A stretch of 12,299 nt of DNA from a virus (taxonomy: Duplodnaviria; Heunggongvirae; Uroviricota; Caudoviricetes). The notes beneath the pieces are model-generated. The model saw only the letters and a program-made list of their open reading frames with translations. It was not told where the DNA came from and did no database searches. Positions 1,408-12,299 of the stretch are shown one piece after another. Location: IMG/VR virus record IMGVR_UViG_2778261165_000013. One strand, written 5' to 3'. A program made the translations under genes and the position numbers. How positions within the stretch are numbered: the first letter of the stretch is position 1; each line of letters begins with the position of its first letter.

Positions 1408-3411
1408 TTAACGAACCAGATGCAGGAAGTGCAGGTGTTTTTCGTACTGGTCCAGTATGTCATTAATCAGCTGTTCCTGATTCCAGCCCATTACATCATA
1501 ATTTTGGCCGCCCTCTTTGAGATAGACTTCAGCGCGATAATATCGATGTTGTTCACTCTGCTGCTCATCATTATCCAGCGCAGCGAGCGCGAAGGTCGGT
1601 GAGTTATACCCGCGAAGCCTCACTTCATATATATAATTCAGCTCGTTGCCCAAATCGACTTCAAGGCGAATACGATCCTCGGCGGCGTCACTGATGTGGC
1701 TTATCGTTCCCTGCTTGTTAAGTTCCTCCTGAACCAGCGTCATGGCGGGTTGGATAATGTCGTCCATAAAACGTTTCACAAGAGAGCGCTTCGGCAAATA
1801 CGCGATATTGCGTAACCTTCTCTGCCAGGGAATTGGGTTACGTGCAGCCGTAGGAGCAATAGTCGCCATGCTAAGGCTTTCACGCTTGGTCAAATCCCGA
1901 CGCAGGGCTTTTAACAGTCCGTATATGGATATTAATAAGATAACTGAGAAGGGCAATGCACTCGCTATCGTTACGGTTTGCAACGCACTCAGCCCCCCTG
2001 CGATCAGCAGGGCAATAGCAACAACGCCCATGAGCGATGCCCAGAAAATTCGCTGCCAGACGGGCGTGTTTGCCACCCCACCTGATGCCAGAGTATCCAC
2101 AACCATTGCCCCCGAATCAGCAGACGTTACAAAGAAGACGATGACCATCGCCATTGCAATGAATGACAGCACGGAAGAGAACGGGAAATGCTCCAGGAAA
2201 TTAAACAGGGCAAGCGCAACATCCTGCTGAACGGTATTGGCGAGGTCAGTGGCGCCCTGGTTCATGATGAGATAGATGGCGCTGTTTCCAAACACCGTCA
2301 TCCACATGAGCGTAAAGCCGGCGGGAACAAACAACACGCCAGTCACGAACTCACGAATTGTCCTGCCGCGGGAAACGCGTGCAATGAACATACCTACAAA
2401 CGGCGACCATGAAAGCCACCATCCCCAGTATAATAATGTCCAGCCCCCCAGCCAGTTGCTCGACTTGGGTTCATACGCGTAAAGGTTGAACGTTTTACTC
2501 ACCAGTTCCGACAGATAACCACCCGTATTTTCCACAAATGACTTCAGCAGAAGCACAGTGGGACCCAGGCACAAGACCAGCGCCAGGAGCAACACCGCCA
2601 GGCCCAGATTAAGCTCAGACAGGATGCGTATTCCCTTGTCCAGGCCGGACACCACCGAAATCGTCGCTAACCCCGTGATGACCACGATCAAAATGACCTG
2701 TACCGTTTCATTGATGGGCACGCCGAAAAGATGGTTCAAACCGGCATTCACCTGCAATACACCGTAACCCAGCGATGTTGCAACGCCAAAGACAGTGCCT
2801 ATCACGGCGAAGATATCAACCGCGTGGCCTATAGGCCCGTAAATGCGATCGCCGATAATGGGATAGAGCGCAGAACGCAGCGTTAAAGGCAGACCGTGAC
2901 GGTAACTGAAAAAGGCCAGAATCAGCGCCACGATGGCATAAATTGCCCATGCGTGCAGACCCCAGTGGAAGAACGTCAGGCGCATGGCTTCCTTCGCTGC
3001 CGCAACGGTCTCTGGAGTGCCGACAGGTGGCGAAAGATAATGCATCACAGGTTCGGCAACGCCAAAGAACATCAGGCCGATCCCCATCCCTGCCGAAAAA
3101 AGCATCGCGAACCAGGAGTGGTAGCTGAAATCAGGCTGCGCATGGTCTGGGCCCAGCTTTATATCACCGTAACGTGAGAGTCCAAGGAACGTGACGCTCA
3201 GTAAAATCAGGGCCACAGCAAGTATGTAGAACCAGCTGGCATTCGTGAAGATTTGTTGCTGAAGTAGTTTAAAATTTTTGTCGGCGACATCCGGGAATAC
3301 GGCGGCAAAGGCGACAAGAAGGAAAATTAGCAAAGCAGATGTAAAGAATACCGCTTTGTTAATCTGGCTTGTAGACTTCTTTGGGGTTGTATCATTTTCA
3401 CTCATAATCAT
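1408..3411 (-). CDS. BCCT-family transporter, BetT-like (choline/betaine/carnitine transporter paralog), 667 aa
   Basis: Long polytopic membrane protein with a BetT-like pattern (…GIGLMFFGVAEP…, …WTLLYWGWWLSWSPFVGMFIARVSRGRTIREF…) and a ~170-aa hydrophilic C-terminal tail ending DILDQYEKHLHFLHLVR, as in E. coli BetT. Not identical to my recollection of BetT itself. Confidence 0.88.
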   Translation of the reverse strand: MIMSENDTTPKKSTSQINKAVFFTSALLIFLLVAFAAVFPDVADKNFKLLQQQIFTNASWFYILAVALILLSVTFLGLSRYGDIKLGPDHAQPDFSYHSWFAMLFSAGMGIGLMFFGVAEPVMHYLSPPVGTPETVAAAKEAMRLTFFHWGLHAWAIYAIVALILAFFSYRHGLPLTLRSALYPIIGDRIYGPIGHAVDIFAVIGTVFGVATSLGYGVLQVNAGLNHLFGVPINETVQVILIVVITGLATISVVSGLDKGIRILSELNLGLAVLLLALVLCLGPTVLLLKSFVENTGGYLSELVSKTFNLYAYEPKSSNWLGGWTLLYWGWWLSWSPFVGMFIARVSRGRTIREFVTGVLFVPAGFTLMWMTVFGNSAIYLIMNQGATDLANTVQQDVALALFNFLEHFPFSSVLSFIAMAMVIVFFVTSADSGAMVVDTLASGGVANTPVWQRIFWASLMGVVAIALLIAGGLSALQTVTIASALPFSVILLISIYGLLKALRRDLTKRESLSMATIAPTAARNPIPWQRRLRNIAYLPKRSLVKRFMDDIIQPAMTLVQEELNKQGTISHISDAAEDRIRLEVDLGNELNYIYEVRLRGYNSPTFALAALDNDEQQSEQHRYYRAEVYLKEGGQNYDVMGWNQEQLINDILDQYEKHLHFLHLVR

Positions 3412-3745
3412 TTATTCCATTAATTAAATCCGCACTGGATAGAAGGTACTACCTCTCACAGAGTAGCAAAGTTCAACTGGCTATGCGGGGTTAATCGGAA
3501 TGCATGGTGGAATGAGTGCCGATACAAATCATCCTATATTCTAAGGAGTTTTAAGTTACTCAGCCTGCCAATTACTGGGGCATTTAATTTGTATGATCTG
3601 TATCAAAGCTGGGATATAAGTTAAGTGAAGTATATTAGGCACGAATTACCAGCGTCTGCTCTTGGCACAAAGCGGACAACCACGCTAGCTCTACCCTGTG
3701 CCACAAAATGTCAATTTGCATCTGAACTAATGCACTTTAATCTCG

Positions 3746-4168
3746 TCACTTCAATAAATACCGAACATCCCCCTGATAAAACGACAATATGCGCTGCATA
3801 ACTTCGCTCTTCCGGCACTCGCGACAGATTATGTTTAGGCGACTGTCGTAGCGACGTATTTCTCCGTCAGGTAATGACCAGATAAGGTCCGGATCAACCA
3901 CAACCGGTTTCTTCAGCTTTGCCCTCGATAATTTTTTGCGGGCATTTTGCCAGTCTTTACGAGCCTGTTCAGACGGGAATAACCCGTAGCCAGAATTGTA
4001 TACATCGCCACTGGCAACCAGCTCTCTGGCCAGAACGCTCATCAGATATCTTGTTGCCCCAGTTTTAGCTTCCAGTTGTCGTAACGTCTCGCGCCCACTC
4101 TGGCGTACGAGTTCAAGAACCTGCCCTTTAATTTTTTCCCGCTCTTCTTGTGTAAAAACTTTTGCCAC
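3746..4168 (-). CDS. Hypothetical 140-aa protein downstream of the replication-initiator gene (possible winged-helix/helper protein)
   Basis: ORF with a strong AGGAGG Shine-Dalgarno ~6 nt upstream of the ATG at 4168, co-oriented with and 40 bp downstream of the initiator-like gene. No family recognised. Confidence 0.55.
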   Translation of the reverse strand: MAKVFTQEEREKIKGQVLELVRQSGRETLRQLEAKTGATRYLMSVLARELVASGDVYNSGYGLFPSEQARKDWQNARKKLSRAKLKKPVVVDPDLIWSLPDGEIRRYDSRLNIICRECRKSEVMQRILSFYQGDVRYLLK

Positions 4169-4208: not shown

Positions 4209-5279
4209 TTACCCCCTGAAGCCCGGCGGAATTTCGTTATCCGGTTCAGAAATATGATTCACACAACGCTGGTTGTTCGTGCCGCTTACCGGGAGCAACC
4301 AGGGGTTCTCAAAATTCCGGTCCGGTCCAAAAAACGTCGTCGCTCGCTGAACAAATTCCGTTCCCGTTTTCCCGGTAGCCGCCAAGTATCTTGCGTAACG
4401 CCTCACGCCATCCAGCATGGCCTCTGGTGGCACCCCCTCGCGTAATCTGGCCTTCCAGGCACTGAAAGCGGATTTCTTCGGGTTTGCCCCAGCACGCAAC
4501 GGGTACTCCCGCCAGACCTGTTCGAACACATCCGGATAATCCACTCGTCCCACAGACTGCCCGGTGTTTTCCGGGACTACCCGATCGGTTTCCCGCTGAA
4601 TGGCGGAATCGGCTTCAGGCTGCTGCAGTTGGTGTGATTGCTCCGCCCTTGCGGTCATCACCTGCTGCACAGCGCCCGAATCGGCTTTCAGCGCATACGC
4701 TGAATCGGCTTCCGGTGTCGTGCCTGCTGGCTGACCAAGATTGACGGTCTGAACATCCCCTGCCTGGTTCGTGGCGTTTTTTACGCCATGGACCATAGTG
4801 TTTTGATCTTCTTGATCTGTATCTTTATCTGTATCTTTATCTGTCGTGACTCGTCGTGACATGTGCGTGACATTTCGTGACGCGCCGTGACAATCGCCAT
4901 TTTGTTCCCGCTTTCTTTCCCTCTCTCGCTGCGCCCTCTTGCGCTCTGCAGGAGATTTTGCGGTTTGCGAAATATTGCCGTTGTCCTCTTTAAGCACCTG
5001 GCGTTTTTCCCATCCAGTGATTAAATCACCATCAAGTACCCGCCCCTGCATCGTCTGCAAAATTGAATCAATTACCTCTTCTGTCACGTCGAGCGCACTT
5101 GCCAAATCTTCTGTCGTGACATCAATGTGACCTCGCGTGACATTTCGTGACGCGCTCACCAGGAGGTGGATATACACTGCCATCACTGTTGCAATTGGCT
5201 GTCCTGACACCCTGGCAATTGTTCGCCACTTAGGGTCATTTGGCATGTCATGCCATAATCTGAGCCAGGCGTTAGCCAT
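4209..5279 (-). CDS. Phage replication-initiator-like protein (lambda O analog; position of ydaU in Rac) with origin iterons inside the coding sequence
   Basis: ORF of ~356 aa; the ATG at 5279 has a GAGGTGAG Shine-Dalgarno, while the ORF track starts at an upstream GTG at 5285. Sits immediately after the ydaT-like gene, as O follows cII in lambdoid phages. Contains two clusters of phased CGTGAC repeats, mirrored in the protein as a repeated ASRNVT segment and a low-complexity TDKDTDKDTD linker. Confidence 0.6.
   Translation of the reverse strand: MANAWLRLWHDMPNDPKWRTIARVSGQPIATVMAVYIHLLVSASRNVTRGHIDVTTEDLASALDVTEEVIDSILQTMQGRVLDGDLITGWEKRQVLKEDNGNISQTAKSPAERKRAQRERERKREQNGDCHGASRNVTHMSRRVTTDKDTDKDTDQEDQNTMVHGVKNATNQAGDVQTVNLGQPAGTTPEADSAYALKADSGAVQQVMTARAEQSHQLQQPEADSAIQRETDRVVPENTGQSVGRVDYPDVFEQVWREYPLRAGANPKKSAFSAWKARLREGVPPEAMLDGVRRYARYLAATGKTGTEFVQRATTFFGPDRNFENPWLLPVSGTNNQRCVNHISEPDNEIPPGFRG
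4817..4891. repeat. Candidate replication-origin iteron array 1: tandem 12-mer TCTGTATCTTTA x2, then five CGTGAC repeats phased at 10-11 bp
   Basis: CGTGAC at 4845, 4855, 4866, 4876 and 4886; AT-rich tandem 12-mers at 4817..4840; a polypyrimidine tract follows at ~4905..4945. Confidence 0.6.
5115..5155. repeat. Candidate iteron array 2: four YGTGAC repeats phased at 10-11 bp
   Basis: CGTGAC/TGTGAC at 5115, 5126, 5136 and 5146. The 21-mer GCGTGACATTTCGTGACGCGC at 5135..5155 is identical to 4865..4885. Confidence 0.55.
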
Positions 5280-5350
5280 ACTCACCTCTTTTGATACCGA
5301 ATCTTTTTACTCACAAATTGCCGGAAGTGATCCGGTATGAATATTGCGAG

Positions 5351-6959: not shown

Positions 6960-7115
6960 ATGCAAAAAATCGACCTCGGCAACAACGAATCCCTGGTGTG
7001 CGGCGTGTTCCCCAACCAGGATGGAACGTTCACTGCCATGACGTATACCAAAAGCAAAACATTTAAAACCGAAACTGGTGCGCGCCGATGGTTGGAGAAG
7101 CACACAGTAAGCTAA
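6960..7115 (+). CDS. ydaF: Rac prophage small protein YdaF (51 aa)
   Basis: Hand-translated: MQKIDLGNNESLVCGVFPNQDGTFTAMTYTKSKTFKTETGARRWLEKHTVS. Starts 10 nt after the ydaG stop; its 3-prime end overlaps the convergent sieB stop by 4 nt. Confidence 0.7.
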   Translation: MQKIDLGNNESLVCGVFPNQDGTFTAMTYTKSKTFKTETGARRWLEKHTVS

Positions 7116-7600
7116 CGATTAAAACGTCTACTCCTGCTGTTCCAGAATAACTTCATAAAATGGGAGTATTTTTCGGTGACGAGATAATAAGAACAGTTTG
7201 CGCTATCACTCTGATGTTGAATGATGCCCTTCCGTTCTAATTTTTTCATAACCAGGTTACGGCAAGGAGAAGTGATAATAAGATTTCCTGTTTTAAGGAA
7301 ATCTTTAAATACAGCGATTTCTTTCTCAGATAAACGAAGCAATACTCGTTGCTCTGGTAGTAATGAATAATGCTTTTGAATATGTGCTCGCAATCTTGAG
7401 AAGGAAATGGCGACCACGAAAGAAAAGGCAAAAACGATAATCTGAAAGAGCCAAGGTATTTCAGTATAAGCATTGAATGCGACAGTAAACTCTTTCGGTA
7501 TCAGCCAGAGAGTGAGACCAAAAATGATAATCGTATACATAAGTCTTTCGAGTGGCTCGTTAGCAAAAAGTTTCAACAATGGAGTAAATACATCCAACAT
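7112..7600 (-). CDS. sieB: Superinfection exclusion protein B (SieB), 162 aa
   Basis: Sequence from MLDVFTPLLKLFANEPLERLMYTIIIFGLTLWLIPKEF… recognised as Rac SieB; membrane helices present. The ATG at 7600 has a GAGAG Shine-Dalgarno; the ORF-track start at 7723 is an unsupported upstream extension. Confidence 0.85.
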   Translation of the reverse strand: MLDVFTPLLKLFANEPLERLMYTIIIFGLTLWLIPKEFTVAFNAYTEIPWLFQIIVFAFSFVVAISFSRLRAHIQKHYSLLPEQRVLLRLSEKEIAVFKDFLKTGNLIITSPCRNLVMKKLERKGIIQHQSDSANCSYYLVTEKYSHFMKLFWNSRSRRFNR

Positions 7601-7817
7601 ATCAATAACTCTCAACTGTAAGGGTATTGAAATGTTAACACAAGCTCTCGCTGTAGGGGTATAGCCGAGACCACCGAAGCCCGGAGGTGGTGAAATAAAA
7701 CCGGGCACAACACGAAGGCGCATTTCCGATATCCATAAAGAGTCGGTCTTGTCTGTTAAATTTAAATGGTGGGAGTGCGCCTCCGGTTGTAAATAACGAC
7801 ATTGCTGTGTGTAGTCC

Positions 7818-8884: not shown

Positions 8885-11485
8885 ATGAGCACAAAACCAC
8901 TCTTCCTGTTACGGAAAGCGAAAAAATCATCCGGTGAACCTGACGTCGTCCTGTGGGCAAGCAACGATTTTGAATCGACCTGTGCCACTCTGGACTACCT
9001 GATCGTTAAGTCAGGTAAAAAACTGAGCAGCTATTTTAAAGCTGTTGCCACGAATTTTCCTGTCGTTAATGACCTGCCCGCTGAAGGTGAGATCGATTTT
9101 ACCTGGAGTGAACGCTATCAACTCAGCAAAGACTCCATGACATGGGAACTAAAACCGGGAGCAGCACCAGACAACGCTCACTATCAAGGCAATACCAACG
9201 TCAACGGCGAAGACATGACTGAGATTGAGGAGAATATGCTACTCCCAATTTCTGGCCAGGAACTGCCCATTCGTTGGCTTGCTCAACACGGCAGCGAAAA
9301 ACCGGTAACGCACGTTTCACGCGACGGACTCCAGGCATTACACATTGCTCGGGCTGAAGAACTACCGGCTGTTACTGCCCTGGCTGTTTCCCACAAAACC
9401 AGCCTGCTCGACCCGCTGGAAATTCGCGAACTCCACAAACTGGTTCGTGACACTGACAAAGTTTTCCCTAATCCTGGTAATTCAAACCTGGGACTGATAA
9501 CTGCTTTTTTCGAAGCATACCTGAACGCTGACTACACCGATCGAGGACTGCTGACAAAAGAGTGGATGAAGGGTAATCGTGTTTCACACATCACTCGCAC
9601 GGCTTCCGGTGCTAATGCTGGCGGCGGAAACCTCACCGATCGCGGCGAAGGTTTCGTACACGATCTGACGTCACTGGCGCGCGACGTAGCCACTGGCGTA
9701 CTGGCCCGTTCAATGGATCTGGACATCTATAACCTTCATCCGGCACACGCTAAACGCATTGAGGAAATTATCGCTGAAAATAAACCGCCCTTTTCTGTTT
9801 TCCGCGACAAATTCATCACCATGCCTGGCGGGCTGGATTATTCCCGCGCCATCGTGGTTGCGTCCGTAAAAGAAGCACCAATTGGGATCGAGGTCATCCC
9901 CGCGCACGTCACTGAATATCTGAACAAAGTACTGACTGAAACCGATCATGCCAACCCTGATCCGGAAATCGTGGATATTGCCTGCGGTCGCTCCTCTGCC
10001 CCGATGCCGCAGCGAGTAACAGAAGAAGGAAAACAGGATGATGAAGAAAAACCGCAACCATCTGGAACAACGGCAGTTGAACAGGGAGAGGCTGAAACAA
10101 TGGAACCGGACGCAACTGAACATCATCAGGACACGCAGCCGCTGGATGCTCAGTCACAGGTAAATTCTGTTGATGCGAAATATCAGGAACTGCGGGCAGA
10201 ACTCCATGAAGCCCGGAAAAACATTCCATCAAAAAATCCTGTCGATGCCGATAAATTGCTTGCTGCATCACGTGGTGAATTTGTTGACGGAATTAGCGAC
10301 CCGAACGATCCGAAATGGGTAAAGGGGATCCAGACTCGCGATTGTGTGTACCAGAACCAGCCAGAAACGGAAAAAACCAGCCCAGATATGAATCAACCTG
10401 AGCCAGTAGTGCAACAGGAACCGGAAATAGCCTGCAATGCCTGCGGCCAGACTGGCGGGGATAACTGCCCTGACTGTGGTGCGGTGATGGGCGACGCAAC
10501 ATACCAGGAAACATTCGCTGAAGAGAGTCAGGTTGAAGCTAAGGAAAATGATCCGGAGGAAATGGAAGGCGCTGAACATCCGCACAATGAGAATGCTGGC
10601 AGCGATCCGCATCGCGATTGCAGTGATGAAACTGGCGAAGTCGCAGATCCCGTAATCGTAGAAGACATAGAGCCAGGTATTTATTACGGAATTTCGAATG
10701 AGAATTACCACGCGGGTCCCGGTATCAGTAAGTCTCAGCTCGATGACATTGCTGATACTCCGGCACTATATTTGTGGCGTAAAAATGCCCCCGTGGACAC
10801 CACAAAGACAAAAACGCTCGATTTAGGAACTGCTTTCCACTGCCGGGTACTTGAACCGGAAGAATTCAGTAACCGCTTTATCGTAGCACCTGAATTTAAC
10901 CGCCGTACAAACGCCGGAAAAGAAGAAGAGAAAGCGTTTCTGATGGAATGCGCAAGCACAGGAAAAACGGTTATCACTGCGGAAGAAGGCCGGAAAATTG
11001 AACTCATGTATCAAAGCGTTATGGCTTTGCCGCTGGGGCAATGGCTTGTTGAAAGCGCCGGACACGCTGAATCATCAATTTACTGGGAAGATCCTGAAAC
11101 AGGAATTTTGTGTCGGTGCCGTCCGGACAAAATTATCCCTGAATTTCACTGGATCATGGACGTGAAAACTACGGCGGATATTCAACGATTCAAAACCGCT
11201 TATTACGACTACCGCTATCACGTTCAGGATGCATTCTACAGTGACGGTTATGAAGCACAGTTTGGAGTGCAGCCAACTTTCGTTTTTCTGGTTGCCAGCA
11301 CAACTATTGAATGCGGACGTTATCCGGTTGAAATTTTCATGATGGGCGAAGAAGCAAAACTGGCAGGTCAACAGGAATATCACCGCAATCTGCGAACCCT
11401 GTCTGACTGCCTGAATACCGATGAATGGCCAGCTATTAAGACATTATCACTGCCCCGCTGGGCTAAGGAATATGCAAATGACTAA
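8885..11485 (+). CDS. recE: Exodeoxyribonuclease VIII (RecE), full length 866 aa
   Basis: 866-aa ORF starting [29 protein letters not shown]… and ending …[13 protein letters not shown], recognised as E. coli Rac RecE. GAGG Shine-Dalgarno upstream; its stop overlaps the recT start in the ATGACTAAG arrangement. Confidence 0.95.
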
Positions 11486-12110
11486 GCAACCACCAATCGC
11501 AAAAGCCGATCTGCAAAAAACTCAGGGAAACCGTGCACCAGCAGCAGTTAAAAATAGCGACGTGATTAGTTTTATTAACCAGCCATCAATGAAAGAGCAA
11601 CTGGCAGCAGCTCTTCCACGCCATATGACGGCTGAACGTATGATCCGTATCGCCACCACAGAAATTCGTAAAGTTCCGGCGTTAGGAAACTGTGACACTA
11701 TGAGTTTTGTCAGTGCGATCGTACAGTGTTCACAGCTCGGACTTGAGCCAGGTAGCGCCCTCGGTCATGCATATTTACTGCCTTTTGGTAATAAAAACGA
11801 AAAGAGCGGTAAAAAGAACGTTCAGCTAATCATTGGCTATCGCGGCATGATTGATCTGGCTCGCCGTTCTGGTCAAATCGCCAGCCTGTCAGCCCGTGTT
11901 GTCCGTGAAGGTGACGAGTTTAGCTTCGAATTTGGCCTTGATGAAAAGTTAATACACCGCCCGGGAGAAAACGAAGATGCCCCGGTTACCCACGTCTATG
12001 CTGTCGCAAGACTGAAAGACGGAGGTACTCAGTTTGAAGTTATGACGCGCAAACAGATTGAGCTGGTGCGCAGCCCTGAGAGATCCCCTCATAATTTCCC
12101 CAAAGCGTAA
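11478..12110 (+). pseudogene. recT: recT (RecT single-strand annealing protein) truncated by IS10 after codon 199; chimeric ORF ends with the IS10-encoded tail PERSPHNFPKA
   Basis: Begins [41 protein letters not shown]…, recognised as RecT (full length 269 aa). Native sequence ends at 12075, where the IS10 inside end begins, and the reading frame runs 32 nt into IS10 to a TAA. Confidence 0.9.
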
Positions 12111-12299
12111 CCATGTGTGAATAAATTTTGAGCTAGTAGGGTTGCAGCCACGAGTAAGTCTTCCCTTGTTATTGTGTAGCCAGAATGCCGCAAAACTTCC
12201 ATGCCTAAGCGAACTGTTGAGAGTACGTTTCGATTTCTGACTGTGTTAGCCTGGAAGTGCTTGTCCCAACCTTGTTTCTGAGCATGAACGCCCGCAAGC
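12076..12299 (-). mobile_element. IS10 (IS4 family), partial copy: inside-end portion, element continues right of the window, inverted relative to the left copy
   Basis: Begins CTGAGAGATCCCCTCATAATTTCCCCAAAGCGTAACC… and is the exact reverse complement of 1..224. Confidence 0.85.
12089..12298 (-). CDS. IS10 transposase, C-terminal 69 codons (partial)
   Basis: Mirror image of the 2..211 coding fragment on the minus strand. Confidence 0.8.
   Translation of the reverse strand, partial: LAGVHAQKQGWDKHFQANTVRNRNVLSTVRLGMEVLRHSGYTITREDLLVAATLLAQNLFTHGYALGKL

Follow-up and report, generated by a model that had tools for sequence, protein, structure and literature searches.

The collective evidence of this study is best explained, at a probability of about 0.9, by the insertion of IS10 into recT of a short cryptic Rac prophage, with the effect that the RecET copy located there is non-functional. 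Mechanistically, a copy of IS10 (ISVsa5) would have transposed into the consensus-like site TGCGCAGCC at recT codons 197-199; the prophage is a short, cryptic one of Rac type, and the E. coli lineage that harbours it has undergone a large expansion of IS10. The window, by which we mean the whole stretch of DNA analysed (12,299 bp), carries recE complete and recT cut.

Results

The window is a draft contig bracketed by IS10

The window represents the whole draft contig NTPJ01000084.1 of the E. coli assembly GCA_002463735.1, both ends of which break off within IS10. It stops inside the element because it is the complete contig. The contig ends form a 224-bp inverted repeat, both arms reading CTGAGAGATCCCCTCATAATTTCCCCAAAGCGTAACC... 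inward; by computation, the arms can be extended to 233 nt at 98%, the extension taking in the similar 9-bp target sites. The left partial copy of IS10/ISVsa5 (positions 1-224, + strand) is inverted relative to the right partial copy (positions 12076-12299, - strand; 224 bp), and both present one and the same type of end, the one nearest the transposase stop codon ("inside"-type). The transposase of the right copy reads leftward, and the contig end falls inside the element. Both arms match the transposase-distal ends of 1329-bp ISVsa5 (= IS10) elements in closed relatives.

The stretch between the IS10 ends encodes a DUF2254 protein and a BCCT transporter, as well as a short remnant of a Rac-type prophage comprising DUF977, a replisome organiser, ydaT, ydaS, a repressor-like gene, ydaF, sieB, kilR, ydaE, racC, recE and recT. 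The DUF2254 membrane-protein gene (positions 190-1359, - strand) has its 3' end truncated by the left IS10 and is likewise partial in the annotation of a relative; its open reading frame ends, as that of recT does, in the IS10-encoded tail ...ERSPHNFPKA. The host of this cryptic Rac-type prophage is a poultry-associated E. coli lineage. Only two closed genomes have both window junctions, namely Z1323CEC0004 and Z1323CEC0002. In each of them the BCCT gene is occupied by a third IS10. As this gene is intact in the window, the source strain is understood as a relative of these genomes, not identical to them.

RecE is complete

The recE gene (exodeoxyribonuclease VIII; positions 8885-11485, + strand) is an intact, uninterrupted open reading frame of 866 aa, as the initial annotation had claimed. 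The N-terminal Exonuc_VIII region (PF06630, residues 2-178) and the C-terminal PD-(D/E)XK nuclease domain (PF12684, residues 615-850) are both present, as expected of a full-length protein, and residues 605-866 match the solved nuclease domain (PDB 3H4R) with E=3e-180. The accession of the protein, WP_024232464.1, is common to strain 13C1065T, whose recT is free of insertion sequences, and to Z1323CEC0004, which has the IS10 junction. The overlap of recE with recT, also noted earlier, is retained as in intact strains: it comprises 8 nt (ATGACTAA; positions 11478-11485, + strand), the recT ATG at 11478 being located within the end of recE and the recE stop codon occupying 11483-11485. The arrangement in 13C1065T is identical (recE end 6601, recT start 6594), and the 8-nt overlap suggests that translation of the two genes is probably coupled.

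IS10 ends recT after codon 199

The native part of recT, codons 1-199 (positions 11478-12074, + strand), is identical to intact RecT through S199. It is followed by the junction codon, 10 IS10-encoded codons and a stop codon (positions 12075-12110, + strand), as established from translation and alignment. The chimeric frame thus runs from 11478 to 12110, with the stop codon at 12108-12110, and encodes 210 aa, compared to 269 aa for the intact RecT of 13C1065T; the two proteins part from residue 200 on. In the DNA alignment, the break occurs after ...GTGCGCAGCC (12075) and the IS10 end CTGAGAGATCCCC... begins at 12076. Codon 200 spans the junction, and the 11-residue tail PERSPHNFPKA is read from IS10, so that the last 70 codons of RecT are lost and replaced by 11 IS10-derived residues. 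The earlier statement of a truncation by IS10 after codon 199 of some 269 native codons, with 11 residues contributed by the element, is hence accurate.

The identical junction is present in the two closed chromosomes Z1323CEC0004 and Z1323CEC0002 (chicken, South Korea), for which the RefSeq annotation gives a partial recT without C-terminus, and the chimeric protein is encoded on five draft contigs (that of the window and four others). We considered whether RecT might naturally comprise only about 200 aa, a possibility the initial annotation had named as one that could overturn it. It is ruled out by a single match spanning at least 80% of the 810-bp gene in 1730 of 1810 recT-bearing E. coli genomes, together with the Pfam RecT profile reaching to residue 244.

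The full element in a closed relative (locus L001, 17192-18520, - strand) is 1329 bp long and encodes an IS4-like ISVsa5 transposase. The 9-bp target TGCGCAGCC (positions 12067-12075; recT codons 197-199) matches the core of the classical IS10 consensus NGCTNAGCN (PMC4574204) in 5 of 6 positions, and so does the 9-mer at the left junction, TACTCAGCA (reverse complement TGCTGAGTA). Scores of 5/6 or better are found at only 64 of the 11,843 window positions. A terminus that directly abuts the gene, a 1329-bp element with transposase and targets resembling NGCTNAGCN are all present, as expected of an IS4-family (IS10) insertion. In Z1323CEC0004 the left IS10 entered the DUF2254 gene by simple insertion and is flanked by a perfect 9-bp duplication of TACTCAGCA; a 9-bp duplication is likewise seen at the recT site of strain TP6-1. 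The two junction 9-mers agree at 5 of 9 positions, which was also considered as a sign of inversion or of a shared duplication, a notion rejected on the grounds that the similarity reflects the target consensus and that the left copy has a duplication of its own. Roughly 37-39 places per chromosome match IS10 in the closed relatives.

The truncated RecT lacks the floor of the DNA groove

The 210-aa product is still matched by the Pfam RecT profile (PF03837; E=2e-38, above the curated cutoff), the match being restricted to positions 1-148 of the 198 in the profile; intact RecT, through its residues 53-244, covers positions 1-187. Residue mapping used the only solved homologue, Listeria innocua RecT (LiRecT; PDB 7UB2), which aligns to E. 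coli RecT residues 15-247 at an identity of roughly 25-30%, and it was corrected for the 3-residue tag offset of the PDB chain. In LiRecT, helices alpha3 and alpha2 jointly line the bottom of the DNA groove; alpha3 holds the inner strand, and its residues K206, R210, N211 and K215 correspond to inner-site residues of RAD52; DNA binding was abolished by K206E and by every double mutant tested among K111, K206, R210 and K215, and W216 and I218, also on alpha3, contribute to the principal contact between subunits (PMC9772228). The E. coli counterparts of the four residues are K219, R223, R224 and K227 in the motif MAKKTAIRRLFKY, and all are located beyond residue 199.

The truncated protein thus retains the N-terminal lobe and the beta-hairpin region; missing from it are helix alpha3, on which the DNA groove has its floor, a portion of the subunit interface, and the tail at the C-terminus. 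A complete core fold including alpha3 is not present in the 210-aa RecT, and its sequence characterises it as a gene fragment of a RecT/Redbeta family member, very probably non-functional as a member of that family. In consequence of the combined loss of alpha3, interface part and tail, the product is very probably dead, and the structural comparison allows us to infer strongly that annealing activity would be lost in RecT(1-199)+11. The alignment of chimeric with full-length RecT proposed in the initial annotation therefore gives a clear result, the alpha3 residues being lost and the profile ending at 148/198, and the suggestion made there of a probably non-functional annealase is well supported, given that the missing part holds elements of both DNA binding and oligomerisation.

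A 792-bp deletion is found beyond IS10 in closed relatives

The gene order free of insertion sequences, as found in 13C1065T, is recT-ralR-rcbA-xisR-intR-ttcA. In both closed relatives the outside end of IS10 abuts TGCTTCGCA in xisR, and there is no second copy of TGCGCAGCC. Compared to 13C1065T, 792 bp are missing (recT codons 200-269, ralR, rcbA and the first 16 codons of xisR), the deletion extending from recT codon 199 to xisR codon 17. The IS10 event in these genomes is therefore more than an insertion. Older work on IS10 describes adjacent deletions promoted by the element at low frequency. The deletion could have arisen by recombination between two IS10 copies of the same orientation or by an IS10-promoted adjacent deletion; IS10 at recT is flanked in the closed relatives by two different 9-mers, and as both resemble IS10 targets, either route is possible.

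A recT 3' remnant, which the initial annotation had proposed to look for elsewhere in the genome, is absent beside the outside end of IS10 in the Z1323CEC relatives, as judged with a synthetic query of the ancestral right junction; the segment is deleted there. The sole full match to this query was strain ET5, which represents a different background.

The closest complete genomes encode a second recE-recT pair

A chimeric query composed of a lineage-specific anchor and a probe, evaluated by counting matching places, revealed one extra locus matching both recT halves in Z1323CEC0004 and Z1323CEC0002. The locus lies in another Rac-like prophage, adjacent to yebY and about 0.6 Mb away. Its recE (WP_096935336.1) encodes 891 aa with both Pfam domains and is 86% identical to the window RecE over residues 40-866; its recT (WP_000166317.1) encodes 269 aa and differs from Rac RecT at S27N, L200Q and N242D; the recE/recT overlap is likewise 8 nt. 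An intact second recT, which had been named as a finding that could refute the proposed loss, is thus present in the two closest complete genomes. The local truncation stands, and the lineage is not necessarily short of RecT.

IS10 has entered recT repeatedly

In strain TP6-1, IS10 is located at the identical 9-mer in opposite orientation, with a clean duplication of TGCGCAGCC and both recT halves present. Strain ET5 has IS10 at the identical 9-mer in the orientation of the window; its recT 3' half is intact, recE and the recT 5' part are gone, and the 5' side is replaced by other prophage DNA. The laboratory strain ET12567, of Tn10 lineage, carries IS10 at another recT position, about codon 243. 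The TGCGCAGCC site has therefore been hit by IS10 in at least two strains other than the source, at least once independently. This recurrent use identifies recT as a gene that contains a preferred IS10 target and whose disruption is recurrent. Nothing specific on IS10 in the recT of Rac came up in a literature search.

Discussion

In the mechanism proposed, the truncated product would lack, with helix alpha3, the basic residues gripping the inner DNA strand and a share of the subunit interface, and also the C-terminal tail, which is thought to bind partner proteins. The 210-aa protein would hence be expected neither to bind or anneal DNA nor to form filaments. The upstream recE is untouched, and full exonuclease VIII is still encoded. 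The RecET copy located here would be non-functional for want of a cognate annealase and by virtue of its normal repression. The complete genomes most closely related went through a further step that removed the recT 3' part, ralR, rcbA and the xisR 5' end, and an independent Rac-like prophage in them still supplies an intact recE-recT pair.

The description of RecET as half-disabled, given in the initial annotation, needs to be qualified accordingly in scope. Locally it holds, recE being intact and recT cut. In K-12, Rac recET is normally fully repressed, and activity requires sbcA-type mutations or capture by lambda (PMC3945230; PMC9504249), so that "half-disabled" would describe a module that is usually silent (PMC3945230). 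Since the immunity region of the window differs from that of K-12, the repression data may not transfer to the prophage considered here. Regarding the overall interpretation offered earlier, the local status of the two genes and the likely annealase loss persist, and the second intact recT, the deletion in relatives and the normally silent state of recET limit what follows from them.

Several other explanations deserve consideration. The window is a short-read draft contig with a repeat at both ends, and a mis-assembly at the repeat might be suspected as the origin of the junction; the likelihood of this is practically negligible, for the junction lies 224 bp inside the contig and recurs identically in two closed chromosomes and four other draft contigs. 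A further question is the state of the source strain beyond IS10. We consider it fairly likely that the strain carries the 792-bp deletion, the only two closed genomes with both window junctions having it. A simple IS10 insertion in the source strain, with the recT 3' part, ralR, rcbA and the whole of xisR beyond the element and the deletion arising later on the Z1323CEC0002/0004 branch only, is a possible though less probable scenario. It draws on the exact site having received a documented simple insertion in TP6-1, and on the BCCT gene, intact in the source and occupied by the third IS10 in Z1323CEC0004, which could indicate that the source is less rearranged. The far-side junction would read TGCTTCGCACTGG in xisR in the deletion state and TGCGCAGCCTGAGTAAAG in the recT 3' part after a simple insertion.

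Other readings concern function and mobility. The truncated RecT might be partly active, dominant-negative or endowed with a new function, the truncation being selected and not the outcome of neutral decay. IS10 occupies one recT site in three strain backgrounds, by at least two independent insertions, and the product still has the N-terminal lobe and the beta-hairpin region. However, the recurrence is explained by the target preference of IS10 (a 5/6 site), orientations and outcomes vary by strain, with ET5 lacking recE and the recT 5' part altogether, and the product has no helix alpha3, on which DNA binding and filament contacts depend; we regard such a function as very improbable. Highly unlikely, too, is the broader conjecture that the recurrent hits at codons 197-199 reflect selection against the annealase while RecE, KilR and SieB are kept, or that the IS10 bracket renders the 11.85-kb recE-bearing block mobilisable; if the selection were real, the cryptic prophage would have been domesticated toward an exonuclease-only or defence role. 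There is, finally, little chance that the 11.85-kb segment between the inverted IS10 copies (recE, kilR, sieB, BCCT) is a Tn10-like composite transposon that has moved, or can move, as a unit. Its geometry is that of Tn10, the two copies being inverted with the transposase-distal end of each facing the segment. Yet the features of insertion as a unit, a shared outer duplication and a foreign location, are lacking: the segment resides in its native chromosomal context, with the same gene order IS10-free in about 250 genomes; a separate 9-bp duplication accompanies the left IS10 in the DUF2254 gene; and the outer flanks, the other half of DUF2254 on one side and xisR-intR-ttcA on the other, share no target duplication. 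An origin as composite transposon is thus largely refuted, and the structure arose in place from separate insertions.

The preferred reading, transposition of IS10 into recT with loss of the annealase, therefore describes ordinary gene decay of a kind already annotated, and all its parts (Rac recE/recT, IS10, pseudogenisation and deletion by insertion sequences) are textbook knowledge. The sole point that is mildly new is the identification of recT codons 197-199 as a repeatedly used IS10 target. The significance is small beyond strain bookkeeping, and the case provides a clean example of how a cryptic prophage decays through an expanding insertion sequence. For annotation, the 210-aa open reading frame is best handled as a pseudogene. 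Predictions of phenotype need to assess RecET capacity genome-wide, since a second module, an intact one, exists in close relatives. The preferred target in recT could be of interest to users of IS10-bearing strains in RecET-dependent cloning (cf. ET12567).

There exist clear relationships to known systems. The element in the window is the same as IS10 (IS10R of Tn10; ISVsa5 in RefSeq) of the IS4 family, as regards the length of 1329 bp, the 9-bp duplication and the NGCTNAGCN-like targets. The recT copy in the closed relatives is an ordinary element of this type, but differs in having no flanking duplication, which is absent because of the secondary deletion. The insertions in TP6-1 and ET5 affect the same gene at the exact 9-bp target used in the window, whereas that in ET12567 is at a different site. 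Tn10 has the same inverted pair of IS10 copies with transposase-distal ends inward; the block in the window differs from it in having been assembled in place at the native locus. The Rac RecET of K-12 shares the gene order racC-recE-recT, the 8-nt overlap and the 866-aa RecE, and its full-length recT is 99.9% identical in nucleotide sequence to the matching allele without insertion sequence in 13C1065T. Compared to K-12 Rac, the recT of the window has an IS10-derived tail in place of codons 200-269, and the prophage remnant is shorter, leading from the DUF977 gene directly into the chromosomal BCCT and DUF2254 genes, with a different immunity region.

Disruption of recT and DUF2254 by IS10

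The draft contig is the whole window, and both of its limits lie inside IS10/ISVsa5 copies, the terminal segments (1-224 and 12076-12299) representing the same end of each of two inverted copies. Both disrupted genes enter IS10 in the same frame, and the tail ...ERSPHNFPKA is common to DUF2254 and recT. On the left, the element cuts off the 3' end of the DUF2254 membrane-protein gene (190-1359; junction 224/225). The closed relatives Z1323CEC0004 and Z1323CEC0002 present this site as a simple insertion with a 9-bp duplication, TACTCAGCA, the 3' fragment of the gene being found beyond the far side of the left IS10.

At the recT IS10 of Z1323CEC0004, a 792-bp deletion has removed the recT 3' part, ralR, rcbA and the xisR 5' part, and codon 17 of xisR adjoins the outside end of the element (L001, the locus of this relative, 17192-18700). 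The RefSeq XisR of Z1323CEC0004 comprises 55 aa, from a GTG start made with the last IS10 base. IS10 has an outward-reading promoter, pOUT, which in the recT copy would face xisR'-intR; the prophage carrying this copy in Z1323CEC0004 is probably locked in place. In Z1323CEC0002, a second Rac-like prophage adjoining yebY (L008, the locus of that relative, 9333-12810) encodes intact recE (891 aa) and recT (269 aa) together with ralR and kil, and its integrase is interrupted by an IS3-family element.

Insertion of IS10 in recT is found in other strains, at the identical 9-bp target TGCGCAGCC in TP6-1 (locus L003, 2089-3436) and ET5 (locus L005, about 14970-16310), and at about codon 243 in the Tn10-lineage laboratory strain ET12567 (locus L004, about 2230-3545). 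The BCCT transporter gene, intact in the window (1408-3411), has a third IS10 inside it in the closed relatives (L001 7028-8236). Searches whose query contained an IS10 end returned about 37-39 matching places per chromosome in these relatives, which points to an IS10 expansion.

Remaining prophage genes and comparison with known elements

The replisome-organiser gene (4209-5285, minus strand) contains two clusters of the CGTGAC repeat, at 4845-4891 (five copies) and 5115-5151 (three or four copies), with a spacing of 10-11 bp; the window has 11 occurrences compared to about 3 expected. The clusters resemble iterons of the origin in a lambdoid gene of O type. For sieB, the longest ORF (7112-7723) has 203 aa, while RefSeq gives SieB of the relatives as 162 aa from an internal start, and the 41 extra N-terminal codons are probably untranslated.

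Compared to Rac of K-12, the remnant in the window is much shorter: the late, lysis and trkG region is absent, and at 3411-4168 the DUF977 (ydaW-like) gene immediately adjoins chromosomal sequence, namely the genes for BCCT and then DUF2254, an arrangement common to about 250 E. coli genomes. The inverted IS10/ISVsa5 pair around the 11.85-kb block has a Tn10-like geometry.
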